Shown here piece after piece: positions 1 through 24,339 of a stretch of 64,000 bases of DNA; the stretch's first letter is position 1; the number at the start of each line of letters is the position of its first letter. Source of the stretch: Mayamaea pseudoterrestris (taxonomy: Eukaryota). Made by a program: the position numbers and the translations under genes. Where the stretch lies: positions 372,001 to 436,000 of the forward strand of contig BROI01000018.1 of assembly GCA_027923505.1 (NCBI GenBank). Reading direction: 5' to 3'. The notes below the pieces were generated by a model that saw only the letters and a list, made by a program, of their open reading frames with translations, was not told the origin of the DNA and did no database searches.

Positions 1-3000
1 AACTGAAACTTTGCTGTGTTTGGCCCATGGAACACCCTACTTGTTTCAGTCTCAGTCACACCACAGCCACTGCCAGAATTGCTGCTGTATTCAAAGTTCC
101 AAGCCTTGGACCTTGTCAAGCACCTTCTGCGGATTGCAGTAGCAGGTTCAGATTCTTGGTGGCCAGGTTGCATCACTTTACAAATCCCATCTGAAACTTT
201 GATGTGGTGGAACCACTTGGAGGAACCTACTTGCTATATTCACACATAACCACTGCCTGACTGGCTTCCAAATTGGACCATCTCAACCTTTGACTTTGTC
301 AAACAACCTATCCTGATTGCCATGGCATGCTCGGAATCATGCTTGCAAAGTTGGATCATAACATAAATCCCAATTGAAACTTTGCTGTGTTTGGCCCATG
401 GAACACTTTTCTTGTTTTAGTCTCAGTCACATCACAGCAACTGCCAGAATTGCTGCTGTATTCAAAGTTCCAAGCCTTGGACCTTGTCAAGCACCTTCTG
501 CGGATTGCAGTAGCAGGTTCAGATTCTTGGTGGCCAGGTTGCATCACTTTACAAATCCCATCTGAAACTTTGATGTGGTGGAACCACTTGGAGGAACCTA
601 CTTGCTATATTCATGCATAACCACTGGCTGACTGGCTTCCAAATTGGAACATCTCAACCTTTGACTTTGTCAAACAACCTATCCTGATTGCCATGGCATG
701 CTCAGAATCATGCTTGCAAGGTTGGATCATCACGTAAATCCCAATTGAAACTTTGCTGTGTTTGGCCCATGGAACACTTTTCTTGTTTTAGTCTCAGTCA
801 CACCACAGCCGCTGCCAGAACTGCTGCTGTATTCAAAGTTCCAAGCCTTTAACCTCGTCAAGCACCTTCTGCGGATTGCAGTAGCAGGTTCAGATTCTTG
901 GTGGCCAGGTTGCATCACTTTACAAATCCCATCTGAAACTTTGATGTGGTGGAACCACTTGGAGGAACCTACTTGCTATATTCAAGCATAACCACTGGCT
1001 GACTGGCTTCCAAATTGGAACTTCTCAACCTTTGACTTTGTCCACCAACCTATCCTGATTGCCATGGCATGCTCAGAATCATGCTTGCTAGGTTGGATCA
1101 TCACATACATCCCAACTGAAACTTTGCTGTGTTTGGCACACGGAACACCCTACTTGTTTCAGTCTCAGTCGCACCACAGCCACTGCCAGAATTGCTGCTG
1201 TATTCAAAGTTCCAAGCCTTGGACCTTGTCAAGCACCTTCTGCGGATTGCAGTAGCAGGTTCAGATTCTTGGTGGCCAGGTTGCATCACTTTACAAATCC
1301 CATCTGAAACTTTGATGTGGTGGAACCACTTGGAGGAACCTACTTGCTATATTCACGCATAATCACTGGCTGACTGGCTTCCAAATTGGAACATCTCAAC
1401 CTTTGACTTTGTCAAACAACCTATCCTGATTGCCATGGCATGCTCAGAATCATGCTTGCAAGGTTGGATCATCACATAAATCCCAACTGAAATTTTGCTT
1501 TGTTTGGCACATGGAACAGTCTCAGTCACACCACAGCCGCTGCCAGAACTGCTGCTGTATTCAAAGTTCCAAGCCTTGGACCTTGTCAAGCACCTTCTGC
1601 GGATTGCAGTAGCAGGTTCAGATTCTTGGTGGCCAGGTTGCATCACTTTACAAATCCCATCTGAAACTTTGATGTGGTGGAACCACTTGGAGGAACCTAC
1701 TTGCTATATTCACACATAACCACTGGCTGACTGGCTTCCAAATTGGAACATCTCAACCTTTGACTTTGTCAAACAACCTATCCTGATTGCCATGGCATGC
1801 TCAGAATCATGCTTGCTAGGTTGGATCATCACATAAATCCCAACTGAAACTTTGCTGTGTTTGGCCCATGGAACACCCTACTTGTTTCAGTCTCAGTCAC
1901 ACCACAGCCACTGCCAGAATTGCTGCTGTTTTCAAAGTTCCAAGCCTTGGACCTTGTCAAGCACCTTCTGCGGATTGCAGTAGCAGGTTCAGATTCTTGG
2001 TGGCCAGGTTGCATCACTATACAAATCCCATCTGAAACTTTGATGTGGTGGAATCACTTGGAGGAACCTACTTGCTATATTCACGCATAATCACTGGCTG
2101 ACTGGCTTCCAAATTGGAACATCTCAACCTTTGACTTTGTCAAACAACCTATCCTGATTGCCATGGCATGCTCAGAATCATGCTTGCTAGGTTGGATCAT
2201 CACATAAATCCCAACTGAAACTTTGCTGTGTTTGGCACATAAAACACCCTACTTGTTTCAGTCTCAGTCTCACCACAGCCACTGCCAGAACTGCTGCTGT
2301 ATTCAAAGATCCAAGCCTTGGACCTTGTCAGCAGATTGCAGTAGCAGGTTCAGATTCTTGGTGGCCAGGTTGCATCACTATACAAATACCATCTGAAACT
2401 TTGATGTGGTGGAACCACTTGGAGGAACCTACTTGCTATATTCACGCATAATCACTGGCTGACTGGCTTCCAAATTGGAACATCTCAACCTTTGACTTTG
2501 TCAAACAACCTATCCTGATTGCCATGGCATGCTCAGAATCATGCTTGCTAGGTTGGATCATCACATAAATCCCAACTGAAACTTTGCTGTGTTTGGCCCA
2601 TGGAACACCCTACTTGTTTCAGTCTCAGTCACACCACAGCCACTGCCAGAACTGCTGCTGTATTCAAAGTTCCAAGCCTTGGACCTTGTCAAGCACCTTC
2701 TGCGGATTGCAGTAGCAGGTTCAGATTCTTGGTGGCCAGGTTGCATCACTTTACAAATCCCATCTGAAACTTTGATGTGGTGGAACCACTTGGAGGAACC
2801 TACTTGCTATATTCACGCATAACCACTGGCTGACTGGCTTCCAAATTGGAACATCTCAACCTTTGACTTTGTCAAACAACCTATCCTGATTGCCATGGCA
2901 TGCTCAGAATCATGCTTGCTAGGTTGGATCATCACATAAATCCCAACTGAAACTTTGCTGTGTTTGGCCCATGGAACACCCTACTTGTTTCAGTCTCAGT

Positions 3001-6000
3001 CACACCACAGCCTCTGCCAGAATTGCTGCTGTATTCAAAGTTCAATGCCCTGGACCTTGTCAAGTACCTTCTGCGGATTGCAGTAGCAGGTTCAGATTCT
3101 TGGTGGCCAGGTTGCATCACTTTACAAATCCCATCTGAAACTTTGATGTGGTGGAACCACTTGGAGGAACCTACTTGCTATATTCACACATAATCACTGC
3201 CTGACTGGCTTCCAAATTGGAACATCTCAACCTTTGACTTTGTCAAACAACCTATCCTGATTGCCATGGCATGCTCAGAATCATGCTTGCAAGGTTGGAT
3301 CATCACATAAATCCCAACTGAAATTTCGCTTTGTTTGGCACATGGAACACCCTTCTTGTTTCAGTCTCAGTCACACCACAGCAACTGCCAGAATTGTTGC
3401 TGTTTTCAAAGTTCCAAGCCTTGGACCTTGTCAAGCACCTTCTGCGGATTGCAGTAGCAGGTTCAGATTCTTGGTGGCCAGGTTGCATCACTTTACAAAT
3501 CCCATCTGAAACTTTGATGTGGTGGAACCACTTGGAGGAACCTACTTGCTATATTCACACATAACCACTGCCTGACTGGCTTCCAAATTGGAACATCTCA
3601 ACCTTTGACTTTGTCAAACATCTTATTCTGATTGCCATGGCATGCTCAGAATCATGCTTGCAAGGTTGGATGATCACATAAATCCCAACTAAAACTTGGC
3701 TGTGTTTGGCACATGGAACACCCTACTTGTTTCAGTCTCAGTCACACCACAGCCACTGCCAGTATTGCTGCTGTTTTCAAAGTTCCAAGCCTTTAACCTC
3801 GTCAAGCACCTTCTGCAGGTGAATTGCAGTTTCAGTCTCAGTCACCACGCCACTCGAATTGCTGTTTCAAAGTTCCAAGCCTTGGACCTTGCTTCACCTT
3901 CTGCGGATTGCAGTAGCAGGTTCAGATTCTTGGTGGCCAGGTTGCATCACTATACAAATCCCATCTGAATCTTTGATGTGGTGGAACCACTTGGAGGAAC
4001 CTACTTGCTATATTCACGCATAACCACTGGCTGACTGGCTTCCAAATTGGAACATCTCAACCTTTGACTTTGTCAAACATCTTATCCTGATTGCCATGGC
4101 ATGCTCAGAATCATGCTTGCTAGGTTGGATCATCACATAAATCCCAACTGAAACTTTGCTGTGTTTGGCCCATGGAACTCCCTACTTGTTTCAGTCTCAG
4201 TCACACCACAGCCGCTGCCAGAACTGCTGCTGTTTTCAAAGTTCCAAGCCTTGGACCTCGTCAAGCACCTTCTGCGGATTGCAGTAGCAGGTTCAGATTC
4301 TTGGTGGCCAGGTTGCATCACTTTACAAATCCCATCTGAAACTTTGATGTGGTGGAACCACTTGGAGGAACCTACTTGCTATATTCACGCATAACCACTG
4401 GCTGACTGGCTTCCAAATTGGAACATCTTAACCTTTGACTTTGTCAAACAACCTATCCTGATTGCCATGGCATGCTCAGAATCATGCTTGCTAGGTTGGA
4501 TCATCACATAAATCCCAACTGAAACTTTGCTGTGTTTGGCACATGGAACACCCTACTTGTTTCAGTCTCAGTCACACCACAGCCGCTGCCAGAACTGCTG
4601 CTGTTTTCAAAGTTCCAAGCCTTGGACCTCGTCAAGCACCTTCTGCGGATTGCAGAAGCAGGTGCAGATTCTTGGTGGCCAGGTTGCATCACTATACAAA
4701 TCCCATCTGAAACTTTGATGTGGTGGAACCACTTGGAGGAACCTACTTGCTATATTCACGCATAACCACTGGCTGACTGGCTTCCAAATTGGAACATCTC
4801 AACCTTTGACTTTGTCAAACAACCTATCCTGATTGCCATGGCATGCTCAGAATCATGCTTGCAAGGTTGGATCATCACATAAATCCCAACTGAAACTTTG
4901 CTGTGTTTGGCACATGGAACACCCTACTTGTTTCAGTCTCAGTCACACCACAGCCGCTGCCAGAACTGCTGCTGTATTCAAAGTTCCAAGCCTTGGACCT
5001 TGTCAAGCACCTTCTGCGGATTGCAGTAGCAGGTTCAGATTCTTGGTGGCCAGGTTGCATCACTTTACAAATCCCATCTGAAACTTTGATGTGGTGGAAC
5101 CACTTGGAGGAACCTACTTGCTATATTCACGCATAACCACTGGCTGACTGGCTTCCAAATTGGAACATCTCAACCTTTGACTTTGTCAAACAACCTATCC
5201 TGATTGCCATGGCATGCTCAGAATCATGCTTGCTAGGTTGGATCATCACATAAATCCCAACTGAAACTTTACTGTATTTGGCACATGGAACACCCTACTT
5301 GTTTCAGTCTCAGTCACACCACAGCCCCTGCCAGAATTGCTGCTGTATTCAAAGTTCCAAGCCTTGGACCTTGTCAAGCACCTTCTGCGGATTGCAGTAG
5401 CAGGTTCAGATTCTTGGTGGCCAGGTTGCATCACTTTACAAATCCCATCTGAAACTTTGATGTGGTGGAACCACTTGGAGGAACCTACTTGCTATATTCA
5501 CGCATAACCACTGGCTGACTGGCTTCCAAATTGGAACATCTCAACCTTTGACTTTGTCAAACAACCTATCCTGATTGCCATGGCATGCTCAGAATCATGC
5601 TTGCAAGGTTGGATCATCACATAAATCCCAACTGAAACTTTGCTGTGTTTGGCACATAAAACACCCTACTTGTTTCAGTCTCAGTCACACCACAGCCACT
5701 GCCAGAACTGCTGCTGTATTCAAAGTTCCAAGCCTTGGACCTTGTCAAGCACCTTCTGCGGATTGCAGTAGCAGGTTCAGATTCTTGGTGGCCAGGTTGC
5801 ATCACTATACAAATCCCATCTGAAACTTTGATGTGGTGGAACCACTTGGAGGAACCTACTTGCTATATTCACGCATAACCACTGGCTGACTGGCTTCCAA
5901 ATTGGAACATCTCAACCTTTGACTTTAAATCCCAACTGAAACTTTGCTGTGTTTGGCACATAAAACACCCTACTTGTTTTAGTCTCAGTCACACCACAGC

Positions 6001-9000
6001 CACTGCCAGAACTGCTGCTGTATTCAAAGTTCCAAGCCTTGGACCTTGTCAAGCACCTTCTGCGGATTGCAGTAGCAGGTTCAGATTCTTGGTGGCCAGG
6101 TTGCATCACTATACAAATCCCATCTGAAACTTTGATGTGGTGGAACCACTTGGAGGAACCTACTTGCTATATTCACGCATAACCACTGGCTGACTGGCTT
6201 CCAAATTGGAACATCTCAACCTTTGACTTTGTCAAACAATCTATCCTGATTGCCATGGCATGCTCAGAGTCATGCTTGCAAGATTGGATCATCACATAAA
6301 TCCCAACTGAAACTTAGCTGTGTTTGGCACACGGAACACCCTACTTGTTTCAGTCTCAGTCACACCACAGCCGCTGCCTGAACTGCTGCTGTATTTAAAG
6401 TTCCAAGCCTTGGATCTTGTCAAGCACCTTCTGCGGATTGCAGTAGCAGGTTCAGAATCTTGGTGGCCTGGTTGCATCACTGTACAAATCCCATCTGAAT
6501 CTTTGATGTGGTGGAACCACTTGGAGGCACCTACTTGCTATATTCACACATAACCACTGGCTGACTAGCTTCCAAATCAGAACATCTCAACCTTTGACTT
6601 TGTTTTGATTGCCATGGCATGCCCAGAATCATGCTAGCAAGGTCAGATTATCACATAAATCCCAACTGAAACTTTGCTGTGCTTGGCACATGGAACACCC
6701 TCTCAGTCACACCACAGCCGCTGCCTGAACTGCTGCTGTATTTAAAGTTCCAAGCCTTGGATCTTGTCAAGCACCTTCTGCGGATTGCAGTAGCAGGTTC
6801 AGAATCTTGGTGGCCTGGTTGCATCACTTATAAATCCCATCTGAAACTTTGATGTGGTGGAACCACTTGGAGGAACCTACTTGCTATATTCACACATAAC
6901 CACTGGCTGACTGGCTTCCAAATTGGAACATCTCAACCTTTGACTTTGTCAAACAACCTATCCTGGTTGCCATGGCATGCTCAGAATCATGCTTGCTAGG
7001 TTGGATCATCACATAAATCCCAACTGAAACTTTGCTGTGTTTGGCCCATGGAACACCCTACTTGTTTCAGTCTCAGTCACACCACAGCCGCTGCCAGAAC
7101 TGCTGCTGTATTCAAAGTTCCAAGCCTTGGATCTTGTCAAGCACCTTCTGCGGATTGCAGTAGCAGGTTCAGATTCTTGGTGGCCTGGTTGCATCACTTT
7201 AAAATCCCATCTGAAACTTTGATGTGGTGGAACCACTTGGAGAAACCTACTTGGTATATTCACACACAACCACTGCCTGACTGGCTTGCAAATTGGAACA
7301 TCTCAACCTTTGACTTTGTCAAACAACCTATCCTGGTTGCCATGGCATGCTCAGAATCATGCTTGCTAGGTTGGATCATCACATAAAACCCAACTGAAAC
7401 TTTGCTGTGTTTGGCCCATGGAACACCCTACTTGTTTCAGTCTCAGTCACACCACAGCCACTGCCAGAAGGTGCTGCTGTATTCAAAGTTCCAAGCCTTG
7501 GACCTTGTCAAGCACCTTCTGCGGATTGCAGTAGCAGGTTCAGATTCTTGGTGGCCAGGTTGCATCACTATACAAATCCCATCTGAAACTTGGTTGTGGT
7601 GGAACCACTTGGAGGAATCTACTTGCTATAATCACGCATAATCACTGACTGACTGGCTTCCAAATTGGAACATCTCAACCTTTGACTTTGTCAAACATCT
7701 TAATCTGATTGCCATGGCATGCTCAGAATCATGTTGCTAGGTTGGATCATCACATAAATCTCAACTGAAACTTTGCTGCGTTTGGCACATGGAACACCCT
7801 ACCTGTTTCAGTCTCGGTCACACCACAGCCACTGCCAGAAATGCTGCTTTTTTCAAAGCTCCAAGCCTTGGACCTTGTCAAGCACCTTCTGTGGATTGCA
7901 GTAGCATGTTCAGATTCTTGGTGGCCAGGTTGTATCACTTTACAAATCCCATCTGAAACTTTGATGTGGTGGAAGCACTTGGAGGAACCTACTTGCTATA
8001 TTCACGCATAATCACTGGCTGACTGGCTTCCAAATTGGAACATCTCAACCTTTGACTTTGTCAGACTTTGTCAAACAACCTATCCTTATGGCCATGGCAT
8101 GCTCAGAAGCATGCTAGCAAGATTGGATCATCACATAAATCCCAACTGAAACTTTGCTGTGTTTGGCACATAGAACACCCTACTTGTTTCAGTCTCAGTC
8201 ACACCACAGCCACTGCCAGAATTGCTGCTGTTTTCAAAGTTCCAAGCCATGGACCTTGTCAAGCACCTTCTGCAGATTGCAGTAGCAGGTTCAGATTCTT
8301 GGTGGCCAGGTTGCATCACTTTACAAATCCCATCTGAATTTTTGATGTGGTGGAACCACTTGGAGGAACCTACTTGCTATATTCACGCATAATCACTGGA
8401 TGACTGGCATCCGAATTGGAACATCTCAACCTTTGACATTGTCAAACAACTTTTTCTGATTGCCATGGCATGCTCAGAAGCATGCTAGCAAGGTTGGATC
8501 ATCACATAAATCCCAACTGAAACTTTGCTGTGTTTGGCACATGGAACACCCTACTTGTTTCAGTCTCAGTCACACCACAGCCGCTGCCAGAACTGCTGCT
8601 GTTTTCAAAGTTCCAAGCCATGGACCTTGTCAAGCACCTTCTGCGGATTGCAGTAGCAGGTACAGATTCTTGGTGGCCAGGTTGCATCACTTTACAAATC
8701 CTATTTGAAACTTTGATGTGGTGGAACCACTTGGAGGAACCTACTTGCTATATTCACGCATAACCACTGGCTGACTGGCTTCCAAATTGGAACATCTCAA
8801 CCTTTGACATTGTCAAACAACCTATCTTGATTGCCATGGCATGCTCAGAATCATGCTTGCTAGGTTGGATCATCACATAAATCCCAACTGAAACTTTGCT
8901 GTGTTTGGCCCATGGAACACCCTACTTGTTTCAGTCTCAGTCACACCACAGCCACTGCCAGTATTGCTGCTGTTTTTAAAGTTCCAAGCCTTGGACCTTG

Positions 9001-12000
9001 TCAAGCACCTTCTGCGGATTGCAGTAGCAGGTTCAGATTCTTGGTGGCCAGGTTGCATCACTATACAAATCCCATCTGAAACTTTGATGTAGTGGAACCA
9101 ATTGGAGGAACCTACTTGCTATGTTCACGCATAACCACTACCTGACTGGCTTCCAAATTGGAACATCTCAGCCTTTGACTTTGTCAAAGAACTTATTCTG
9201 ATTGCCGTGGCATGCTCAGAAGCATGCTAGCAAGGTTGGATCATCACATAAATCCCAACTGAAATTTTACTGTGTTTGGGACATGGAACACCCTACTTGT
9301 TTCAGTCTCAGTCACACCACAGCCCCTGCTAGAACTGATGCTGTTTTCAAAGTTCCAAGCTTTGGACCTCGTCAAGCACCTTCTGCGGATTGCAGTAGCA
9401 GGTTCAGATTCTTGGTGGCCAGGTTGCATCACTATATAAATCCCATCTGAAAATGTGATATGGTGGAACCACTTGGAGGAATCTACTTGCTATATTCATG
9501 CATAACCACTGCCTGACTGGCTTCCAAATTGGAACATTTCAACCTTTGACTTTGTCAAACAACCTATCCTGATTGCCATGGCATGCTCAGAATCATGCTT
9601 GCAAGGTTGGATCATCACGTAAATCCCAACTGAAACTTTGCTGTGTTTGGCCCATTGAACACCCTACTTGTTTCAGTCTCAGTCACACCACAGCCACTGC
9701 CAGAATTGCTGCTGTATTCACAATTCCAAGCCTTGGACCTTGTCAAGCACCTTCTGCGGATTGCAGTAGCAGGTTCAGATTCTTGGTGGCCAGGTTGCAT
9801 CACTTTATAAATCCCATCTGAAACTTTGATGTGGTGGAACCACTTGGAGGAACTTACTTGCTATATTCACGCATAACCACTGGCTGACTGGCTTCCTAAT
9901 TGGAACATCTCAACCTTTGACATTGTCAAACAACCTATTCTGATTGCCATGGCATGCTCAGAAGCATGCTTGCTAGGTTGGATCATCACATAAATCCCAA
10001 CTGAAACTTTGCTGTGTTTGGCCCATGGAACACCCTACTTGTTTCAGTCTCAGTCACACCACAGCCACTGCCAGAATTGCTGCTGTTTTCAAAGTTCCAA
10101 GCTTTGGACCTCGTCAAGCACCTTCTGTGGATTGCAGTAGCAGGTTCAGATTCTTGGTGGCCAGGTTGCATCACTATACAAATCCCATCTGAAACTTTGT
10201 TGTGGTGGAACCACTAGGAGGAACCTACTTGCTATATTCACGCATAACCACTGGCTGACTGGCTTCCAAATTGGAAAATCTCAACCTTTGACTTTGTCAA
10301 ACATCTATCCTGATTGCCACGGCATGCTCAGAATCATGCTTGCTAGGTTGGATCATCACATAAGTCCCAACTGAAACTTTGCTGTGTTTGGCACATGGGA
10401 CACCCTACTTGTTTCAGTCTCAGTCACACCACAGCCACTGCCAGAATTGTTGCTGTTTTCAAAGTTCCAAGCCTTGGACCTTGTCAAGCACTTCTGCAGA
10501 TTGCTGTAGCAGGTTCAGATTCTTGCTGGCCAGGTTGCATCACTTTACAAATCCCATCTGAAACTTTGATGTGGTGGAACCACTAGGAGGAACCTACTTG
10601 CTATATTCACGCATAATCACTGGATGACTGGCTTCCAAATTGGAACATCTCAACCTTTGACATTGTCAATCATTCTATCCTGATTGCCAAGGCATGCTCA
10701 GAATCATGCTTGCTAGGTTGGATCATCACATAAATCCCAACTGAAACTTTGCTGTGTTTGGCCCATGGAACACCCTACTTGTTTCAGTCTCAGTCAAACC
10801 ACATCCTCTGCCAGAATTGCTGCTGTTTTCAAAGTTCAAAGCCATGGACCTTGTCAAGCACCCTCTGCGGATTGCAGTAGCAGGTTCAGATTCTTGCTGG
10901 CCAGGTTGCATCACTATACAAATCCCATCTGAAACTTTGATGTGGGGGAATGACTTGTAGGGACCTACTTGCTATATTGACACATAACCACTGGCTGACT
11001 GGCTTCCAAATTGAAACATGTCAACCTTTGACTTTGTCAATCATTTTATTCTGATTGCCAAGGCATGCTCAGAATCATGCTTGCTAGGTTGGATCATCAC
11101 ATAAATCCCAATTGTAACTTTGCTGTGTTTGGCACATGGAACACTCTACTTGTTTCAGTCTCAGTCACACCACAGCCACTGCCAGAATTGCTGCTGTTTT
11201 CAAAGTTCCAAGCCTTGGACCTCGTAAAGCACCTTCTGCGGATTGCAGTAGCAGGTGCAGATTCTTGGTGGCCAGGTTGCATCACTATACAAATCCCATC
11301 GGAACTTTGATGTGGTGGAACCACTTGGAGGAACCTACTTGCTATATTCACGCATAACCACTGGCTGACTGGCTTCCAAATTGTGATTGCCATGGCATGC
11401 CCAGAATCATGCTAGCAAGGTCAGATTATCACATAAATCCCAACTGAAACTTAGCTGTGTTTGGCACACGGAACACCCTCTCAGTCACACCACAGCCGCT
11501 GCCTGAACTGCTGCTGTATTTAAAGTTCCAAGCCTTGGATCTTGTCAAGCACCTTCTGCGGATTGCAGTAGCAGGTTCAGAATCTTGGTGGCCTGGTTGC
11601 ATCACTTATAAATCCCATCTGAAACTTTGATGTGGTGGAACCACTTGGAGGAACCTACTTGCTATATTCACACATAACCACTGGCTGACTGGCTTCCAAA
11701 TTGGAACATCTCAACCTTTGACTTTGTCAAACAACCTATCCTGGTTGCCATGGCATGCTCAGAATCATGCTTGCTAGGTTGGATCATCACATAAATCCCA
11801 ACTGAAACTTTGCTGTGTTTGGCCCATGGAACACCCTACTTGTTTCAGTCTCAGTCACACCACAGCCGCTGCCAGAACTGCTGCTGTATTCAAAGTTCCA
11901 AGCCTTGGATCTTGTCAAGCACCTTCTGCGGATTGCAGTAGCAGGTTCAGATTCTTGGTGGCCTGGTTGCATCACTTTAAAATCCCATCTGAAACTTTGA

Positions 12001-15000
12001 TGTGGTGGAACCACTTGGAGAAACCTACTTGGTATATTCACACACAACCACTGCCTGACTGGCTTGCAAATTGGAACATCTCAACCTTTGACTTTGTCAA
12101 ACAACCTATCCTGGTTGCCATGGCATGCTCAGAATCATGCTTGCTAGGTTGGATCATCACATAAAACCCAACTGAAACTTTGCTGTGTTTGGCCCATGGA
12201 ACACCCTACTTGTTTCAGTCTCAGTCACACCACAGCCACTGCCAGAAGGTGCTGCTGTATTCAAAGTTCCAAGCCTTGGACCTTGTCAAGCACCTTCTGC
12301 GGATTGCAGTAGCAGGTTCAGATTCTTGGTGGCCAGGTTGCATCACTATACAAATCCCATCTGAAACTTGGTTGTGGTGGAACCACTTGGAGGAATCTAC
12401 TTGCTATAATCACGCATAATCACTGACTGACTGGCTTCCAAATTGGAACATCTCAACCTTTGACTTTGTCAAACATCTTAATCTGATTGCCATGGCATGC
12501 TCAGAATCATGTTGCTAGGTTGGATCATCACATAAATCTCAACTGAAACTTTGCTGCGTTTGGCACATGGAACACCCTACCTGTTTCAGTCTCGGTCACA
12601 CCACAGCCACTGCCAGAAATGCTGCTTTTTTCAAAGCTCCAAGCCTTGGACCTTGTCAAGCACCTTCTGTGGATTGCAGTAGCATGTTCAGATTCTTGGT
12701 GGCCAGGTTGTATCACTTTACAAATCCCATCTGAAACTTTGATGTGGTGGAAGCACTTGGAGGAACCTACTTGCTATATTCACGCATAATCACTGGCTGA
12801 CTGGCTTCCAAATTGGAACATCTCAACCTTTGACTTTGTCAGACTTTGTCAAACAACCTATCCTTATGGCCATGGCATGCTCAGAAGCATGCTAGCAAGA
12901 TTGGATCATCACATAAATCCCAACTGAAACTTTGCTGTGTTTGGCACATAGAACACCCTACTTGTTTCAGTCTCAGTCACACCACAGCCACTGCCAGAAT
13001 TGCTGCTGTTTTCAAAGTTCCAAGCCATGGACCTTGTCAAGCACCTTCTGCAGATTGCAGTAGCAGGTTCAGATTCTTGGTGGCCAGGTTGCATCACTTT
13101 ACAAATCCCATCTGAATTTTTGATGTGGTGGAACCACTTGGAGGAACCTACTTGCTATATTCACGCATAATCACTGGATGACTGGCATCCGAATTGGAAC
13201 ATCTCAACCTTTGACATTGTCAAACAACTTTTTCTGATTGCCATGGCATGCTCAGAAGCATGCTAGCAAGGTTGGATCATCACATAAATCCCAACTGAAA
13301 CTTTGCTGTGTTTGGCACATGGAACACCCTACTTGTTTCAGTCTCAGTCACACCACAGCCGCTGCCAGAACTGCTGCTGTTTTCAAAGTTCCAAGCCATG
13401 GACCTTGTCAAGCACCTTCTGCGGATTGCAGTAGCAGGTACAGATTCTTGGTGGCCAGGTTGCATCACTTTACAAATCCTATTTGAAACTTTGATGTGGT
13501 GGAACCACTTGGAGGAACCTACTTGCTATATTCACGCATAACCACTGGCTGACTGGCTTCCAAATTGGAACATCTCAACCTTTGACATTGTCAAACAACC
13601 TATCTTGATTGCCATGGCATGCTCAGAATCATGCTTGCTAGGTTGGATCATCACATAAATCCCAACTGAAACTTTGCTGTGTTTGGCCCATGGAACACCC
13701 TACTTGTTTCAGTCTCAGTCACACCACAGCCACTGCCAGTATTGCTGCTGTTTTTAAAGTTCCAAGCCTTGGACCTTGTCAAGCACCTTCTGCGGATTGC
13801 AGTAGCAGGTTCAGATTCTTGGTGGCCAGGTTGCATCACTATACAAATCCCATCTGAAACTTTGATGTAGTGGAACCAATTGGAGGAACCTACTTGCTAT
13901 GTTCACGCATAACCACTACCTGACTGGCTTCCAAATTGGAACATCTCAGCCTTTGACTTTGTCAAAGAACTTATTCTGATTGCCGTGGCATGCTCAGAAG
14001 CATGCTAGCAAGGTTGGATCATCACATAAATCCCAACTGAAATTTTACTGTGTTTGGGACATGGAACACCCTACTTGTTTCAGTCTCAGTCACACCACAG
14101 CCCCTGCTAGAACTGATGCTGTTTTCAAAGTTCCAAGCTTTGGACCTCGTCAAGCACCTTCTGCGGATTGCAGTAGCAGGTTCAGATTCTTGGTGGCCAG
14201 GTTGCATCACTATATAAATCCCATCTGAAAATGTGATATGGTGGAACCACTTGGAGGAATCTACTTGCTATATTCATGCATAACCACTGCCTGACTGGCT
14301 TCCAAATTGGAACATTTCAACCTTTGACTTTGTCAAACAACCTATCCTGATTGCCATGGCATGCTCAGAATCATGCTTGCAAGGTTGGATCATCACGTAA
14401 ATCCCAACTGAAACTTTGCTGTGTTTGGCCCATTGAACACCCTACTTGTTTCAGTCTCAGTCACACCACAGCCACTGCCAGAATTGCTGCTGTATTCACA
14501 ATTCCAAGCCTTGGACCTTGTCAAGCACCTTCTGCGGATTGCAGTAGCAGGTTCAGATTCTTGGTGGCCAGGTTGCATCACTTTATAAATCCCATCTGAA
14601 ACTTTGATGTGGTGGAACCACTTGGAGGAACTTACTTGCTATATTCACGCATAACCACTGGCTGACTGGCTTCCTAATTGGAACATCTCAACCTTTGACA
14701 TTGTCAAACAACCTATTCTGATTGCCATGGCATGCTCAGAAGCATGCTTGCTAGGTTGGATCATCACATAAATCCCAACTGAAACTTTGCTGTGTTTGGC
14801 CCATGGAACACCCTACTTGTTTCAGTCTCAGTCACACCACAGCCACTGCCAGAATTGCTGCTGTTTTCAAAGTTCCAAGCTTTGGACCTCGTCAAGCACC
14901 TTCTGTGGATTGCAGTAGCAGGTTCAGATTCTTGGTGGCCAGGTTGCATCACTATACAAATCCCATCTGAAACTTTGTTGTGGTGGAACCACTAGGAGGA

Positions 15001-16191
15001 ACCTACTTGCTATATTCACGCATAACCACTGGCTGACTGGCTTCCAAATTGGAAAATCTCAACCTTTGACTTTGTCAAACATCTATCCTGATTGCCACGG
15101 CATGCTCAGAATCATGCTTGCTAGGTTGGATCATCACATAAGTCCCAACTGAAACTTTGCTGTGTTTGGCACATGGGACACCCTACTTGTTTCAGTCTCA
15201 GTCACACCACAGCCACTGCCAGAATTGTTGCTGTTTTCAAAGTTCCAAGCCTTGGACCTTGTCAAGCACTTCTGCAGATTGCTGTAGCAGGTTCAGATTC
15301 TTGCTGGCCAGGTTGCATCACTTTACAAATCCCATCTGAAACTTTGATGTGGTGGAACCACTAGGAGGAACCTACTTGCTATATTCACGCATAATCACTG
15401 GATGACTGGCTTCCAAATTGGAACATCTCAACCTTTGACATTGTCAATCATTCTATCCTGATTGCCAAGGCATGCTCAGAATCATGCTTGCTAGGTTGGA
15501 TCATCACATAAATCCCAACTGAAACTTTGCTGTGTTTGGCCCATGGAACACCCTACTTGTTTCAGTCTCAGTCAAACCACATCCTCTGCCAGAATTGCTG
15601 CTGTTTTCAAAGTTCAAAGCCATGGACCTTGTCAAGCACCCTCTGCGGATTGCAGTAGCAGGTTCAGATTCTTGCTGGCCAGGTTGCATCACTATACAAA
15701 TCCCATCTGAAACTTTGATGTGGGGGAATGACTTGTAGGGACCTACTTGCTATATTGACACATAACCACTGGCTGACTGGCTTCCAAATTGAAACATGTC
15801 AACCTTTGACTTTGTCAATCATTTTATTCTGATTGCCAAGGCATGCTCAGAATCATGCTTGCTAGGTTGGATCATCACATAAATCCCAATTGTAACTTTG
15901 CTGTGTTTGGCACATGGAACACTCTACTTGTTTCAGTCTCAGTCACACCACAGCCACTGCCAGAATTGCTGCTGTTTTCAAAGTTCCAAGCCTTGGACCT
16001 CGTAAAGCACCTTCTGCGGATTGCAGTAGCAGGTGCAGATTCTTGGTGGCCAGGTTGCATCACTATACAAATCCCATCGGAACTTTGATGTGGTGGAACC
16101 ACTTGGAGGAACCTACTTGCTATATTCACGCATAACCACTGGCTGACTGGCTTCCAAATTGGAACAACTCAACCTTTGACTTTGTCAAACA
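1..16191. repeat. Tandem satellite array, 371-bp monomer, ~43-44 copies; runs off the left edge of the window
   Basis: The same sequence recurs every 371 bp (ORF-track starts 16, 387, 758, 1129). A few monomers carry indels (~1517, ~2330, ~3817-3895, ~5927, ~6600, ~6700). 371 is not a multiple of 3, and none of the short ORFs continues across successive monomers. Confidence 0.98.
6606..16161. repeat. Higher-order tandem duplication of a 4,778-bp block (~13 monomers): 6606-11383 and 11384-16161
   Basis: Private monomer variants recur at a fixed +4778 offset: gcccagaatcatgctagcaaggtcagatta after 6606/11384, the tcagactttg insertion near 8061/12839, and tgggggaatgacttgtagg near 10943/15721. Identical ORFs occur at 7009/11787, 8068/12846 and 11065/15843. 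Confidence 0.95.
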
Positions 16192-16199
16192 TGCCAAAA

Positions 16200-16882
16200 T
16201 CAGTTTTTAGTCTGTGCTACATGATGGCAGGCCTGGCTGGTGTCTCATTAGACTGCAATGTGACTGTTGAGAACTTCTCACCAGTCTCAGCCCGCAGATG
16301 CTGTGACATTCAATTGCCCCTATGACATGCCCTGTATAAACCCAAATCACACCAGAGCGGTGCCTACATCATGATTCAGTCTGCGCTACATGATGGCATG
16401 CCTGGCTGGTGTCTTAGTAGACTGCAATGTGACTGGTGAGAACTTCTCATCAGTCTCAGCCCGCAGATGCTTTTGACATTCAATTGCCCCTATGACATGC
16501 CCTGTATAAACCCAAATCACACTAGAGCGGTGCTAACATCATTATTCAGTCTGCGCTACAAGATGGCATGCCTGGCTGGTCTCTATGTGATTGGTGACAA
16601 GTTGTCCCCAGTCTCAGCCCGCAGATGCTGTGAAATTCAATTGCCCCTATAACATGCCCTGTATACACCCAAACCACACCAGAATGGTGCCAACTTCATT
16701 ATTCAGTCTGCGCTACAAGATGGCATGCCTGGCTGGTGTCTCAGTAGACTGCAATGTGATTGGTGACAAGTTGTCACCAGTCTCGGCCCGCAGATGCCGT
16801 GACATTCAATTGCCCCTATAACATGCATGTACACCCAAGTCAAACCAGAATGGTGTCAACATCATTATTCTGTCTGCGCTAC
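16200..16882. repeat. Second tandem repeat family, ~169-bp unit, ~4 copies
   Basis: The anchor gctac (followed by a(t/a)gatggca in the first four) lies at 16216, 16385, 16555, 16712 and 16878 (periods 169, 170, 157, 166). The units share a cccgcagatg...ttcaattgcccctat core. Confidence 0.93.
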
Positions 16883-16885
16883 CTG

Positions 16886-18170
16886 TCCAGGGTATGCCAT
16901 TGCCAGGTGCAAAGTCTCAAATGGTGCCAAAAGGACTGCCTGGAGGCTGACACCATGGGTACGGCCTACACTGTGGGTATGGCCAACACCATAAGTTTAA
17001 GATACTTACTTGTCAGATGTCCCATGCCCTGGCCACCTAAAAACCCAATAAATCAAGTAAAACCTTTCCAGGGTGTGCCATTGACAGGTGCAAAGTCTCA
17101 AATGGTGCAACAAGTACCGCCTGGAAGCTGAGGCTGACACCATGGGTACGGCCTCCACTGTGGGTATGGCCAACACCACAAGTTGTAGATTCTTACCTTT
17201 CAAATGCCCCATGCCCTGGCCACCCAACAACCCAATGTGTCAGGCAAAACCTGACCAGGGTGTGCCATTGCCAGGTGCAACGTCTCAATTGGTGCAAAAA
17301 GGACCACCTGGAGGCTGACACCATGGGTACAGCCTACACTGTGGGTATGGGCAACACCATAAGTTTAAGATACTTACTTGTCAGATGCCCCATGCCCTGG
17401 CCACCTAACAGCAAGTACCGCCTGGAAGCCTACACCATGGAATGGTCTGCAGGATGGGTGTGGCCAACACCGCAAGTTATGGAATCATACCACTAGGATG
17501 CCCCATGCCCTGGCCACTCAACGACCCAATGAGTCAGGCAAAACATGTCCAGGGTGTGCCATTGACATGAGCATGGTCTCAAACGGTGCAAAAAGGACTG
17601 CCTGGAAGCCTACACCATGGAATAGTCTGCAGGATGGGTGTGGCCAACACCGCAAGTTATGGAATCATACCACTAGGATGCCCCAAGCCCTGGCCACTCA
17701 ACGACCCAATGAGTCAGGCAAAATCAGTCCAGGGTGAGCCATTGACATGAGCATGGCCTCAAATGGTGCGAAATGGACTGCCTGGAAGCCTACACCATGG
17801 AATGGTCTGCAGGATGGGTGTGGCCAACACCCCAAGTTATGGATTCTTACCTGTCAGTCAGATGCCCCATGCCCCGGCCACTCAATGACCCAATGAGTCA
17901 GGCAAAACATCTCCAGGGTGTGCCATTGACATGAGCATGGTCTCAAATGGTGCAAAAAGGACTGCCTGGAAGCCTACACCATGGAATGGTCTGCAGGATG
18001 GGTGTGGCAATCACCCCAAGTTATGGATTCTTACCTGTCAGTCAGATGCCCCATGCTCTGGCCACTCAATGACCCAATGAGTCAGGCAAAACATCTCCAG
18101 GGTGTGCCATTGACATGAGCATGGTCTCAAATGGTGCAAAAAGGACTGCCTGGAAGCCTACACCATGGAA
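16886..18170. repeat. Third tandem repeat family, ~180-186-bp unit, ~7 copies in two subtypes
   Basis: gcctggaagcctacaccatggaa occurs at 17420, 17600, 17780, 17964 and 18148. The related units at 16886-17410 share ccagggtrtgccattg...ctcaa-tggtgc and atg-cccatgccctggccac. Confidence 0.92.
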
Positions 18171-18446
18171 AAGCTACATTCATATTTATGGCTTTCGTGC
18201 ATCCTTAGAAATGATACAAATCTGAACTCAAGCATTAAATTTGTAGAACATGGAGTGATCCAAGACATAGGTCTGTACAACCATTATCACATTTAAGGAG
18301 CTGCTGGACATCGATGCTGCATGGTCTCAAAGCAAAGGTTCATCACTCATTTAAACGCTAGGTGGCGACAAACAGTAATCTAATCTATATGTACAAATTT
18401 TTAAAAGTTCGGCATCCAGCCCCATCACTCCCCAGCCAGTGACCAA

Positions 18447-20019
18447 TCAAAGTAGCTCCTTGCCTTCAATGTCATTCATCTTGCCACCGTCGCCGTCATT
18501 CATCGCTGTCAAAATGCAGCCGCCCAAAATTAGCAAGCCACCAGCCATGCCAATTGGCGGCATTAGCTCGCCCATGGTAACAAACGCAAAGGCTGATCCC
18601 CAGAGCGAAACGCTTGTCATGAGTACGGTCAGTTCCGACGCGGAAACAATTCTCAGCGCCACAGTCTCCAAGTACAAGGCAAAGGCTGTCGAAACAAGTC
18701 CAGTCCAAAGTAGCGCCTTGACAATGAATGGATCCGTCAACCACTGCATTAAGACGGATATGTCCGGCAAGTCACCCGCGAATCCGCAAAAGGCAGTCGC
18801 TCCAATGCCGAGCGCCACTAGTTGTGCCGCTGTAATGGGACCCGATTGGTTTGGATATTGATGCGATGCTCGTTCCAATCTCCAGTAGCCAATGCCAAAG
18901 AAAATGGCTTGGCAGAGACACAGCAAGTCGCCTTGCGAAACGGCAAACAAGGATGATGGTTCCAAAATATTACTAGCGACTGAATTTGCCGAAGCAAGGA
19001 GTGCAGGCCCGAACTGAAGGAGTGCAACGCCAGCCAAGGCCGTGCCGACGGACACAAAGCCCTTGCCGCCGAGTCGCTTGCCATTGAACAAGACATCGAG
19101 TAGTGGAACAACAATGACGGCAATGGAATTGAAGAATGCGCTCTGCGTGAAAGGTGATTTAATGAGTAAATGAATGAATGGAGCAATTGTATTAAGCATC
19201 AACATAGAGCATGCACGTTCCATCCGCCAAAATGCTTCAAACCTCACAAACAAGTAGACAATTCTATATTCGCACACTCCATTCACATACCTTGCTTGCC
19301 GCCACGTAGTGCAACCCATACGATTGGCAAAGGTAGCCTATCAAGTACCAAGCGCCAACTTCAGCTCCGAGCCACGCGGCTGGAATCCACTCGTTTCTGA
19401 TTGCCATGGCGCTTGCCTTTTCATCGTTACTCAGCGCTGTCGTTGACTGCTGCTGCAATAAACTATCGTTTCGTCTTTGTTGGGACTGATGCTGCCACGC
19501 CACAGTGGTGGTAATGGCCACTGCCGCCAAGACGAATCGCAGCGCCATGGAAACACTCGTCGGTACCACTTGGTCCAGCATTTTCACCGTGGCAAAGTTG
19601 GTGCCAAATATCGCGGCTGCCGCGAGAACGATCAGTCGACCCTGCCACTGCGATAGTGGTGCAGTGGTCGTGGCGTCGTCTGCAGTAGCGATTGTTGTCA
19701 AACTTGGCGCTGTCATGAGCGACTGGAGTTGCAGTGGCATGCCTGTTGCCGCCGGAATGGACTGCTGCTCGTGTTGGTAGTCATTGGAGGAATGGAGTGG
19801 AGCCTCGTGCGCATCGCGGTTCGCACCGCAGGTTGAATTCTGGTGCTGCAGCGACTTGAGAAGGTCGTTCTGCGACATCTCCAGATCCATGAGGGACGGC
19901 GGAGTCGTTGCCACGCTAAGTTGCGAATTCAACCAAAAGGACGGCCCTCGTCTGGTCGGAGCTGACACCACAAAGGCAGTCGAGGATGAAAACCAAAGTA
20001 AGACTACTAGGCGTTTCAT
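18447..20019 (-). CDS. EamA/DMT-superfamily transporter, probably plastid-targeted; 2 exons (20019-19291, 19142-18447)
   Basis: A GT-AG intron at 19290-19143 joins two ORFs to give ...HYVAASK|SAFFNSIAVIVVP. Two EamA-like halves are visible (IFGTNFATVK...ALRF; GDLLCLCQAIFFG...LWTGLVSTAFALYLET). The N-terminus MKRLVVLLWFSSSTAF looks like a signal peptide plus the diatom ASAF-type motif. Confidence 0.85.
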
Positions 20020-20460
20020 GTTTCGATATTGTGAGGAGGTGCGAATGAGGCGTTTGTCACGGAACGTCAAAGCTTGCCTGATAGACGACGCAGCACAATC
20101 CTGCAGCAACAGACGCTCCACCTCTTGTCAATCACCGACACGAAACACTCAGCAGCAAGCAGCAAGTGAAGCTTCTTCTGTCTTGTATGGCTTCACAATC
20201 CGTTGCGCCAGAGCCCACTGACAACTTCTTTCGTCGCGTGACGTGTGCGCGTGTTCGTTTGGCCAAACCAACTTTGTCGTGGCCCGCGCAGACGCGTCGA
20301 ATTGAAACAGCAGGCAATAATAGAAATGACTAATTGAACATTTTTGTTAGTGAAAACGATTAAAAATGACTCATCATGTCGGATTGGTTCTTGAAGCCGT
20401 CGCCGCGCTTGGATCGCTGGCAGCCAAGTTCGCCATGAGGATTCATTTGCTGCTGCAATC

Positions 20461-20747
20461 GGCATCCATTGACTACAGTGTCTAGCTGTCCACAAAGGCA
20501 GGCGAAAAGGATCACGTCACATCCGGTGACCAAGAAGATGATCGTGATGATACTTGGCATGCCAAAATCGTCGCATGGAAGCGGACTTTCACATGAGACA
20601 AAGTGCGACAATCAATCAACCCAGTAATAGACGGCCCAAAGCTTATGGCGATCCGATTTGTTTTCTTTATGATTCAAACAGTGCAGCGGTGGGCGAGTTT
20701 ATGGCTGCCCTTGAAGAGTTCCCCTGTGGACGGGCGCAAGTCCCACG
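20461..20747 (-). pseudogene. Decayed fragment of a silicon transporter (SIT) gene
   Basis: It aligns by eye to 26694-26982 of the intact SIT (gagttcccctgtggacgggcgcaagtcc vs gagttccctgtggacaggcgcaagtcc; gtgaccaagaagatgatcgtgatgat vs gtgaccaagaagatgttcgtgatgat). The translation SPLPCDDFGMPSIITIIFLVTGCDVILFACLCGQLDTVVNGC matches SPLPDAELWGLPSIITNIFLVTGLAMILFTCICGQLNSEVNGC. It has indels and neither start nor C-terminal half. Confidence 0.88.
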
Positions 20748-21200
20748 CACGATTCTAGCCATGCGCCATGCTTAAATGGCTTTCGGCAGTTCGAAAACGC
20801 TCATTGCGCACGCCAATGATCGTCAGGATATGGCTACAAAAGCCTTATGATTTAGCTGTACTTTTCTTTGTTCCTTGCCGGTGCGCTTTTTATTGAAGCC
20901 GTCGACAGTCGACCTACTACTTAGCCAAAGGTGTTGAACGGCCGAGGCAGATTGCGCAAGAAGCTCGAGCGCTGATTCCTGTTTGTCCGTTGCAGTGACA
21001 GTAACAAAACACAGCTGGATTTCGAGAGTATTATGCTCTCTGTCAAGTCTACGCGCGGCATGCCGACCACGACGACAGCGACCGAAAGTCGGTGAGCCAT
21101 CCGACTTTTTCTCGGAGAGCAACATTGCCTATGGCATAAACATTCAATAAAATTGTGCTTTATAATTTGCTATTCACTAAATTTGAGACGTTCGCGCCAC

Positions 21201-23088
21201 TTAATGGTCCGACTTGTCTTCGTCTTCGGTGTGCTCAACCTGCCCTGCATCCATCTTGCGAATCGACGCAATGTACTCCATGACGGCCGGATCCTTGCGC
21301 AAGAGCTTCTTCAGAGACTCTGGAGCATTTTCAATGGAAGTTGGGAGCTTACGCGGGTGTCCTGGACCCAGACCAAGTTGCTCCTCGTCATCCGCATAGT
21401 TTTTGGCGGCACGCTCCTCCGCGGTGCCAATGTAGGCCTCGTCACGCTGAAAATGGGCAATCTTGGCATGAATCTCGGCAAGAACCCAGGCACCAGCGCA
21501 AAGTCCGGTACTTTCCAAAAACAAGCAGATGCGGAGGAAGATGTACGTCATGGGGTTGGACAAAAACGCAATGGGAAAGATCGAAGCCACAAGCTGCCAA
21601 GCAATGGAGCCGACAATGGTTGTGATAAGCGCTCCCAAAAGACCAGTGTTAAAGAGGTTTTGCATTGTGTCGCTGACTCCAAAGAGGTTGTTGCCTTCGC
21701 CTGGAACAATGGAAAGGGACGTGATACGAGCCACCACGAACATGATTGTGACCACGCAGATCTGCCTTCCAACCATAAACGCAGGTAGATTGCGTCCTTC
21801 TCCACGGAACAAAATGTCGCAGACCTTCTTTGCAATGTACGACTCGCCTCGCTGCTCCTTGGTAACTTTGATGACGGCAAAGAAAGCAATCTGCATGCCT
21901 TCCAACAAGCCGACGAAGCTCATGAGGACAAGAAAGACAATAACAGAGACTGCGCTGGGGCAACCTTCCCACATGGTAGTCTTCCCTTGGACGATAGCGG
22001 CAATTGTGACCGCAAAGGCAAAGCAGAGGAGGGCGACCGAAAAGAGGCAGCGGAACCAAAAGAAAACGGCTTGGACTGGTGTACGTGGATCCTCCTTCGA
22101 TTCGACCGGCTTGCCAGCGAGCCAAGCGACCAGCATCTGGATGAGGTAAGACGCGTGCAGAACACCAGAGAACTCAATGGCCATGGCGACGTATAGGGTG
22201 AAGAGGGCAAAATAGTTGGAGACATAGTCGAGCATGCAGTGGCATCCGTTAACCTGAGAGTTGAGCTGACCAATGACGCAGGTGAACAGCACCATGGCAA
22301 GGCCGGTAACCAAGAAAATGTTGGTAAGAATGCTTGGCAGGCCCCATAGCTCGGCTCCAGGAAGAGGGCTTCCGCATTGATTGACAACAAACACAGTTAA
22401 AACAACCCTGTAGAAAGTAGCAAGAGTTAAGTAAGCGAGTATTGATAATGGGAATGGCGCGGCCAGCGACGACGGTAGTCAGCAACGAATGGGGTGCGCT
22501 CCGTGGAAACACTCACATGAACTGCCTTCCTAACAGGTATCTGTCCAAGTTGTCGCCGCTATTCGTGATGCCGGTAATGGTAAAGGCAGTAGGGTGACTG
22601 TCCTTATACAATTGACGCTTTACAGAAACAAGTCCCACGATAGCAGCCTTGTCGAAACAATTGACAATGGGGTGAGATTGCGCGTTAAAAAAGCCTCGAC
22701 ATAGAGTAACAGATGAAACTTTTTATTTTTACATACCTGGCCACCTTCAATCATAGTAAGCCAGATGATTGCTAGCCAGATGACAACAAAAGCGACCGCT
22801 GAGAATGGCGAAGGAACGGTGTGAGCAAGCGAACAAATGGTCGTCATTGGACTGCAAAATGACGGCGTCGTCGTCGACTATAACCGCCGCGCCGGGATCA
22901 CGTTGCCTTTTGACCAGTCATTACGTTAAAATCTGCATCATAGTCGACTTACCTGGATGGCTCTCGCTCGAAATCTTGGTCTGCTGCGTAAAGATCAAAC
23001 CCATGACCATTGCAAGCGAAAAAATCACAAGCCCCATGGAAATGGCTTCCTTGACACGATCAAAGACTGAACGAGTATGGACCGCCAT
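21201..23088 (-). CDS. SIT: Silicon transporter (SIT), copy A; 4 exons (23088-22953, 22798-22737, 22647-22517, 22407-21201)
   Basis: The spliced product MAVHTRSVFDRVKEA...HPAVAF...MIEGGQ|AAIVGL...DRYLLGRQFM|VVLTVFVVNQC...CHCMLDY...LLEGMQIAFF...FMVGRQ contains all four GXQ motifs and CMLD of diatom SITs. Three canonical GT-AG introns keep the frame. Confidence 0.95.
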
Positions 23089-24187: not shown

Positions 24188-24339
24188 GCCAAGCATTTCA
24201 CCGGAAGCATGATGGCCGCTTTTTCAGCGCAGCTGACGACTTGTTTCCCATTGCTGCTCTACTCATTGGCCGAACGCTTATACGACGAGTCGCGTCTGCA
24301 CACTGCCAAGCATTTCACCGGAAGCATGATGGCCGCTTT
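24188..24339 (+). repeat. 35-bp perfect direct repeat pair in the SIT intergenic region
   Basis: gccaagcatttcaccggaagcatgatggccgcttt occurs at 24188-24222 and 24305-24339 (117-bp period). Confidence 0.9.

Follow-up and report, generated by a model that had tools for sequence, protein, structure and literature searches.

The first 18 kb of the window analysed here, a 64,000-bp stretch of contig BROI01000018.1 (C18) of Mayamaea pseudoterrestris, consist of tandem repeats lying next to genes, and the question raised by this locus is whether such a block is a satellite centromere, a piece of subtelomeric heterochromatin or something else. To our knowledge, diatom centromeres have been described in two species and are taken as short, low in GC and without high-copy repeats, a low-GC rule that underlies the design of diatom episomes. 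A sequence-only reading of the window had proposed either a satellite-based centromere or a subtelomeric block. Its assignment of the DNA to a diatom was supported by the finding of two silicon-transporter genes, and the contrast that it drew with Phaeodactylum, whose centromeres are low in GC and lack repeats, holds against the available part of the published description (bioRxiv 10.1101/096016).

The window contains the right half of a satellite block of 36.5 kb (C18:353,626-390,170, in a contig of 724,151 bp) that is flanked by genes on both sides and separated from the two ends of the contig by 354 kb and 334 kb. The earlier description of at least 18 kb of satellite adjoining genes is thus correct for the right edge, but the block itself runs 18 kb further left, beyond the window, before genes are reached; in that direction the 371-bp array extends to C18:368,047 on the same strand and to C18:356,069 on the opposite strand. 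Repeat-library annotation covers 1-18170 without a break or any other inserted DNA, so that neither a gene nor a transposon separates the families, as had been stated (Table 1). The first gene, also as stated, ends less than 300 bp from the satellite, the distance between its frame end and the array being 277 bp. A contig from run X3 lacks 19143-19290 (CT..AC) within this gene, as expected for an intron; few satellite contigs come from the same run, but the kind of this run is not on record and its depth is no measure, so that neither the splice-like joint nor those contigs count as evidence on satellite transcription. No RNA run was listed as containing the satellite, and the summed depth over the monomer in runs X1 and X2 is not taken as a copy number.

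Table 1. Features of the satellite block and of its right flank, in window coordinates
Feature	Position	Strand	Remarks
371-bp satellite array (A371)	1..16191	+	TRF, 30.7 + 13.0 copies; dimer of 188- and 183-bp halves; GC 0.455, CpG o/e 0.13
Tandem duplication inside the 371-bp array, two copies	6606..16161	+	period 4,778 bp; junction 11383/11384
169-bp satellite (B169), 4.2 copies	16192..16882	+	TRF; its family is the most abundant of those found in the genome
19-bp perfect palindrome in the 169-bp unit	16761..16779	.	sequence; 19-bp window with the highest conservation in the family
187-bp subtype of the 181-187-bp family (H181), 2.9 copies	16881..17408	+	TRF
184-bp subtype of the H181 family, 4.2 copies	17413..18170	+	TRF
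First flanking gene, EamA-like transporter	18447..20019	-	start 20019 read from ORF

Base periods of about 169-188 bp had been noticed, and those found were 188 + 183, 169 and 184-187 bp. The 187- and 184-bp units are 78% identical and form one family, and no alignment among the 371-, 169- and 187/184-bp families exceeded z=4 (30 shuffles); the stacking of three unrelated tandem families therefore stands, by TRF and by alignment against shuffles. The two halves of the 371-mer are 65% identical, and 38 monomers of its array have a pairwise identity of 95.3%. Higher-order repeats had also been mentioned, but the only long-range structure is one two-copy duplication. This duplication is exact over 4,692 bp (offset 4,778) in an array otherwise 95% identical, and may be a recent event or an assembly error; the strand switch to the left of the window (C18:368,047) may also be an assembly error. 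We give about even odds that each of these two details is artefactual in an otherwise real array, which would be compatible with the other readings considered below. A second exact duplication, of 4,840 bp, occurs in another island of C18, and a noisy stretch of 3.1 kb repeats right-arm-type sequence in inverted orientation and carries a variant otherwise restricted to the right arm. On the other hand, the junction of the duplication falls outside the monomer register, which an in-register collapse would not produce, and the clean left arm does not mirror the right arm. A fission-yeast layout, with inverted arms around a unique 'central core', was rejected, the apparent spacer being degraded 371-mer.

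Some of these families carry further sequence features. The palindrome of the 169-bp family ranks first of 169 windows in conservation among 501 monomers and was reached by none of 200 shuffles, which suggests that a protein binds it or that it has a structural role; significant dyads, judged against shuffles, were found in two of 11 families. A 10-bp A/T periodicity is absent in nine of 10 families and in all those of the window, unusual folding was seen only in the 348-bp family (z -4.3) and not in the 371-mer, and the best k-mers common to 10 families (5-14 bp, 0-1 mismatch) fell within the range of shuffles. The 5-mer AA[CG]TT (10 occurrences versus 4.4 expected, p 0.011) and a 9-bp core common to the palindromes of the 169- and 348-bp families were chosen after looking, and are therefore not counted as evidence. 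A search of Rfam rendered no structured RNA in 14000-21000, and in metagenome contigs a 28-mer had no match and a 21-mer had one isolated match of 23 bp.

Mapping of the 371-bp consensus had been put forward as a means to distinguish one internal block per chromosome from a location at chromosome ends; the map rendered neither, but many blocks per contig. C18, which was mapped in full, carries 10 satellite islands amounting to 175.5 kb (24% of the contig), each of about 1-47 kb, separated by 18-122 kb and set directly between genes. The islands combine at least ten mutually unrelated families, with units of 162-188 bp or 346-371 bp, in mosaics drawn from the same set. Genome-wide counts with 22/24-mers, allowing up to 1 mismatch and with reversed controls giving 0, rendered 3,456 matches for the 169-bp family, 2,324 for the 181-bp family, 317 for the 352-bp family, 254 for the 348-bp family and 183 for the 371-bp family; together these five make up at least 4% of the 30.6-Mb assembly (about 7-8% when calibrated). 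Among the matches listed, there are at least seven separate satellite sites on C1 and at least eight on C2. The 169-mer is present in seven of the 10 islands of C18, in amounts that range from less than 1 kb to about 25 kb per island, and the block studied holds only about 1.5 kb of it. The 371-mer was found on 10 of 41 contigs (a lower bound), about 86 kb in total, including three sites on C12 and sites near the ends of C8, C12 and C19; since it is restricted to these contigs, it is not a pan-centromeric repeat. Its other arrays that were examined terminate in non-satellite DNA inside their contigs. Junctions between families recur in the same orientation with different breakpoints. Retrotransposon-like inserts were seen in other islands. 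A giant transposon or other common carrier element was rejected, no common terminal sequence being visible by eye at about 30 island edges.

Base composition sets the islands apart from their surroundings. GC is 0.455-0.526 in the arrays, and CpG o/e is 0.12-0.30 there versus 1.08 in the genic part, strong CpG loss being confined to satellite islands. CG-bearing columns vary more than others in the 371-mer (0.145 vs 0.022-0.024 elsewhere, 38 monomers) and in the 169-mer (0.088 vs 0.014-0.029 elsewhere, 105 monomers), mostly as CG/TG/CA; the H181 array tested shows no such variation at its CG columns. A DNMT5-like gene on C2 has methylase and SNF2 domains on one strand within 7 kb, and in Phaeodactylum CG methylation is lost when DNMT5a is lost (PMC9998398, in the part available). 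From the mutation pattern alone, we infer that the islands would be CG-methylated, silent chromatin, maintained through a DNMT5-type enzyme.

With a probability of roughly 0.6, the islands are dispersed satellite heterochromatin, presumably methylated, resembling the Cast repeats of Tribolium castaneum, and most of them, this one included, probably do not carry a kinetochore. The block belongs to a genome-wide set of unrelated satellite families with units of one or two nucleosome lengths, whose short pieces would spread among loci by ectopic exchange or reinsertion; one unit would then expand locally through unequal exchange, which would leave a long homogeneous core, here the 371-mer, edged by short arrays of other families. 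Unit length would reflect selection for regular nucleosome packing and would not in itself be a centromere mark. In Tribolium, nine families with 170/340-bp units make up 4.3% of the genome and lie outside centromeres (PMC4675708; PMC11610590, both in the parts available). Cast-type satellites are also characterised by separation from the centromere in FISH and by presence in circular extrachromosomal DNA. The diatom has several of the Tribolium traits, namely several unrelated families of ~170/~340 bp that amount to a few percent of the genome (~4% in Tribolium), arrays lying among genes, and some families on only a subset of chromosomes or contigs. Unlike Cast1-Cast9, which are AT-rich, the diatom satellites have 45-54% GC in a genome of 30.6 Mb, are stacked into mosaic islands of up to 47 kb and are strongly depleted in CpG, and no separate large centromeric satellite is known in the diatom. 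The heterochromatin reading has weak points: it does not place the centromere of C18, and the low GC, size and central position of this island, the conserved palindrome of the 169-bp family and the invariant CG pattern of the H181 array tested speak against it.

Since the block is one of about ten similar islands on C18, it cannot by itself be called a centromere. It could still be the single regional centromere of its chromosome, or the flank of it, with a satellite that differs by chromosome and with the other islands as ordinary heterochromatin, which we consider unlikely. Monocentric satellite centromeres of plants and animals, such as those of alpha satellite and CEN178, have nucleosome-length units, and the block resembles them in its homogenised unit of one or two nucleosome lengths and its dimeric structure, in the signs of methylation and, for other islands, in the inserts; a CENH3-like gene is present in the assembly, at 130 kb on C2. 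Moreover, no other internal island of C18 is as large as this block, its position is central (49-54% of the contig), it contains the three lowest-GC 10-kb windows (0.450-0.456 vs a mean of 0.492), and the suspect join at C18:368,047 could conceal a longer array. However, alpha satellite and CEN178 span hundreds to thousands of kb instead of tens, the diatom has many loci per contig where one array domain per chromosome would be expected, and the main family of the block is missing from most contigs, although contigs are not proven chromosomes; the limited amount and scattered sites of the 371-mer, some of them near contig ends, without A/T periodicity or unusual folding, also speak against it. 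The CENH3 candidate retrieved only canonical H3 among the 60 matches listed from solved structures, a comparison that does not discriminate. A centromere of the Phaeodactylum type offers no alternative on C18, where there is no stretch of ~500 bp or more below 33% GC: the lowest 1-kb window has 0.406 GC, and at most two 100-bp windows per 3 kb have 32% GC or less. Phaeodactylum tricornutum and Fistulifera solaris belong to the same organism group and have a CENH3-like gene, but their centromeres are short, low-GC and without high-copy repeats, as far as the available parts of the reports go (bioRxiv 10.1101/096016; 10.1101/2021.11.10.468027), unlike this wholly repetitive block of 45-53% GC. 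The missing low-GC peak is nevertheless weak evidence, as Fistulifera has clear peaks on only 8 chromosome pairs (bioRxiv 10.1101/2021.11.10.468027, in the part available).

It is rather improbable that the islands are units of a repeat-based holocentromere or polycentric arrangement in which the 169-bp family bears CENH3, the block being a unit or a decayed unit. Short arrays are interspersed with genes along all of C18, as are the Tyba arrays of Rhynchospora, of about 20 kb with a 172-bp unit (169-172 bp with the diatom unit included), C18 has no monocentric sequence signature, and the 169-bp family, the most abundant one, is present in seven of the 10 C18 islands and keeps its palindrome. 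Tyba, however, is one family with regular spacing that has been shown to carry CENH3 (bioRxiv 10.64898/2026.01.17.700053, in the part available), whereas at least ten families are mixed in the diatom islands, which are of irregular size and spacing; three of the 10 islands lack the 169-mer, which is scarce in the one studied. Holocentromeres of the Tyba type also have line-like kinetochores and an association with Helitrons. Mosaic arrays and a leading family with a conserved 19-bp dyad also recall the holocentromeric repeats of Meloidogyne, but there the 19-bp box is common to all CenH3-bound families (PMC8097292), and no box is common to 10 diatom families beyond chance. In the available parts of the sources, Phaeodactylum centromeres are short and local (bioRxiv 10.1101/096016) and the kinetochores of Hantzschia and Nitzschia are localised (PMC2111477); Tribolium shows the same layout of arrays without centromere function. 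If true, this reading would mean that in this diatom CENH3-bearing islands, led by the 169-bp family, have taken the place of the short, low-GC centromere known from Phaeodactylum, a change for which we found no earlier diatom case.

The subtelomeric option of the sequence-only reading is not supported for this block: the position in the middle of the contig and the genes on both sides indicate that, as assembled, the block is not subtelomeric, no telomere repeat is present in or near it, and its main family is at none of the 82 contig ends. The telomere motif was found only on C11, on C30 and as one weak match on C1, and only one of the 82 ends has a telomere, so that contigs need not be chromosomes. 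It is highly improbable that the block marks a chromosome end, present or former, whether through a contig mis-joined in the array or with the 181-187-bp edge as a relic of a fused or inward-copied subtelomere. This family adjoins the assembled telomere on C11 and points outward at all nine contig ends where it is present (the 169-bp family points outward at 5 and inward at 7), on C30 an internal four-unit telomere repeat lies exactly between 169-bp and H181 arrays, and in the noisy 3.1 kb on the left side of the strand switch gap openings number 3.7 per 100 bp vs 0.1-0.3 elsewhere. In the block, however, the family amounts to no more than 1.3 kb and is oriented into a gene, and a relic origin would account for the edge and not for a subtelomeric position today. 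That the whole block is an artefact is extremely improbable, given that the last 30 satellite bases (one fewer than the 31-letter bridging rule) are joined to the unique flank in contigs of three runs from two studies, one of which runs may be the assembly source.

Should the islands be no more than heterochromatin, they would still offer a compact model of methylated satellite blocks whose edges lie less than 300 bp from genes. Any target of CENH3 in this genome, whether one island, all islands or unremarkable DNA, would be a new answer for diatoms.

The block at the start of the window is real, belongs to a genome-wide satellite library and, as assembled, is not subtelomeric. It spans 36.5 kb of the 724,151-bp contig C18 (the assembly holds 30.6 Mb in 41 contigs), of which the window covers positions 372,001-436,000, and is flanked left and right by DNA whose CpG content is normal, so that it is internal as assembled and the subtelomeric option of the sequence-only reading is not supported. 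From left to right it comprises the 174-bp family, the 169-bp family, the 371-bp family (371-mer), first on the minus strand and, after a strand switch, on the plus strand, then the 169-bp family again and finally the 181-187-bp family. The arrays of the window were found where that reading had placed them, as were its three unrelated families: the 187- and 184-bp arrays form a single one (78% identity), and the 371-, 169- and 187/184-bp families showed no mutual alignment exceeding shuffled controls. The 371-mer is built as a dimer, with halves of 188 and 183 bp that are 65% identical to each other, and 38 of its monomers have a pairwise identity of 95.3%. The next gene, for an EamA-like transporter, ends 277 bp from the satellite, within the 300 bp proposed, and beyond it two silicon-transporter genes adjoin the island, which marks the organism as a diatom. 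A protein identical to the CENH3 candidate of this genome carries the source label Mayamaea pseudoterrestris.

Coordinates of features in the window, on C18 and at other loci (C, contigs of the assembly; L, other fetched loci)
Feature	Location	Remark
371-bp array	window 1-16191	
169-bp array	window 16192-16882	
187-bp array	window 16881-17408	
184-bp array	window 17413-18170	
Intergenic stretch	window 20234-21168	two haplotypes, each at about half depth
Silicon-transporter genes	window 21201-27102	
Acidic protein	window 45952-48156	built on 57-bp repeat
Perfect 57-bp duplication	window 59063-59178	between two convergent long ORFs
Satellite block	C18:353,626-390,170	
Strand switch	C18:368,047	
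Second exact two-copy duplication	C18:245,622-268,203	4,840 bp, nearly the size of the window's
Non-tandem segment	C18:225,500-227,000	CpG-poor
Short arrays of 42-bp unit	C18, 9 sites (222-690 kb); C12, C19	L024-L025, L014
11-bp tandem repeat	C18:1-3,500; C34:225,662-226,602	loosely telomere-like; opens C18; in C34 beside 169-bp array; L029, L190
Retrotransposon-like inserts in other islands	C18:259,012-261,819; C18:460,386-461,120; C26:155,235-156,144; C6:325,914-326,416; C11 from 2,220	labels by eye; one with TG..CA ends at four sites; C18 259-kb insert resembles tyrosine-recombinase element
Internal telomere repeat	C30:219,807	four units; L189
Island pairs	C12:954,754-967,946 and C19:700,820-705,939; C13:257 kb and C26:160 kb	letter-for-letter alike in flanks or junctions; segmental duplicates or uncollapsed alleles
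182-bp-period repeat	C25 end	CpG-poor, outside family library; L171

Contigs from three sequencing runs of two studies (X1, X2 and X5) start at window position 18141 and run on into the unique flank, that of X1 being identical to the window as far as 20263. They support the satellite-gene junction weakly, with 30 satellite letters against a bridging rule of 31 and one run from which the assembly may have been built, and they carry no information on array length. Gap openings number 3.69 per 100 bp in the 3.1 kb to the left of the strand switch, compared with 0.12-0.29 in the rest. This region resembles the right arm and shares a variant otherwise confined to it; it looks like a single poor read joining two sub-arrays. 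Within the window, a 4,692-bp stretch also has an exact second copy displaced by 4,778 bp, and this 4.8-kb duplication and its 4,840-bp twin in another island could be recent events or an assembler habit. Of 82 contig ends, 24 lie within a known family and one carries a telomere, which indicates that the assembly is prone to breaks within arrays and may under-represent them, and that contigs need not equal chromosomes.

Assembly-wide motif matches with at most one mismatch (reversed controls, 0) numbered 3,456 for the 169-bp, 2,324 for the 181-bp, 317 for the 352-bp, 254 for the 348-bp and 183 for the 371-bp family. Multiplied by unit length, these five families, further ones being excluded, make up 1.27 Mb or 4.1% of the assembly, and about 2.3 Mb or 7-8% after correction for the fraction of monomers detected by each motif (159/401, 120/146, 40/46, 36/51 and 152/192 in fetched loci). 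Among the matches listed there are at least seven separate satellite sites on C1 and at least eight on C2. On C18, mapped over its entire length, 12 low-CpG segments were delimited: one is non-tandem, and the others make up 10 satellite islands, one of which an insert divides in two. These islands measure 47.0, 6.4, 1.2, 5.6, 22.6, 11.0, 36.5, 21.4, 2.4 and 21.5 kb, are spaced 18-122 kb apart and together occupy 24% of the contig.

That the studied island is the single centromere of its chromosome is rather unlikely. All three lowest-GC 10-kb windows of C18 fall within it (0.450-0.456; contig mean, 0.492), and no Phaeodactylum-type low-GC stretch was found on the whole of C18 (at most two 100-bp windows at ≤32% GC per any 3 kb). 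However, unlike monocentric satellite centromeres, the block is not limited to one locus: C18 itself carries 10 islands, and the 371-mer, with matches on at least nine contigs besides C18 (19 of 22 candidates scored), has three sites on C12. The island also differs from the centromeres described for Phaeodactylum (bioRxiv 10.1101/096016) and Fistulifera (bioRxiv 10.1101/2021.11.10.468027).

A repeat-based holocentromere appears less probable still. The layout of Tyba holocentromeres (bioRxiv 10.64898/2026.01.17.700053) is similar to that of the C18 islands. On the other hand, the Meloidogyne type has a box shared across families (PMC8097292), whereas no box common to 10 families was found here beyond shuffles; neither a 10-bp A/T rhythm nor unusual folding was found in the window's families. 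In the 169-bp family a perfect 19-bp palindrome, reached by 0 of 200 shuffles, is the best-conserved window (98.7% vs 94.1%; 501 monomers), and a bound dimeric protein might possibly maintain it. The 348-bp family (e.g. L012-L013) has a perfect 29-bp palindrome, with the same core 9-mer, and its folding is much stronger than that of shuffled sequences (z -4.3). Titles and abstract starts among the matches listed on diatom centromeres, satellite DNA and kinetochores, with few subscription papers and no supplements, contained neither such islands nor a holocentric diatom, and no paper naming Mayamaea was among the matches listed.

The 181-bp family, one of the window's three, adjoins the single assembled telomere and is oriented outward at 9 of 9 contig ends, so that it has the appearance of a genuine chromosome-end repeat with additional internal copies; the 169-bp family has no polarity at contig ends (5 outward, 7 inward), and the 371-mer is at 0 of 82. 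The telomere units inside C30, bordered directly by a 169-bp array on one side and by a 181-bp array of opposite orientation on the other, resemble an end-to-end fusion or mis-join and are a single hint of exchange between ends and islands. Repeats occupy both ends of C18, with no telomere found at either, and that the internal block is a present or former chromosome end deserves very little credence. This analysis adds a map of the complete contig, the lack of any low-GC candidate on C18, the polarity shown by the 181-bp family at contig ends and warnings about the assembly.

The arrays have a CpG observed/expected ratio of 0.12-0.30, compared with 1.08 in the remainder of the window, and the ratio is low too in all other fetched islands. 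Relative to other columns, those bearing CG are six times as variable in the 371-mer, while for the 169-mer the factor is three to six, with the states CG, TG or CA; this pattern was absent from the one 181-bp array in which it was sought. A gene on C2 has a cytosine-methylase domain with a SNF2 domain downstream, which is the DNMT5 layout, and in Phaeodactylum DNMT5 provides CG methylation of transposons (PMC9998398). From these sequence features, we infer that the satellite arrays may be CG-methylated. Family junctions recur in the same orientation but at differing breakpoints, which fits repeated independent exchange. Among the matches listed, the nearest stramenopile satellites are those of Phytophthora parasitica (PMC7290008), and the closest working likeness is to the Tribolium Cast satellites (PMC4675708; PMC11610590). 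The island is a mosaic, one of many, CpG-poor and with a sharp boundary at genes. We give a probability of roughly 0.6 to the reading that such mosaic islands would be CG-methylated silent chromatin, whose satellite pieces would move between loci and then expand locally.
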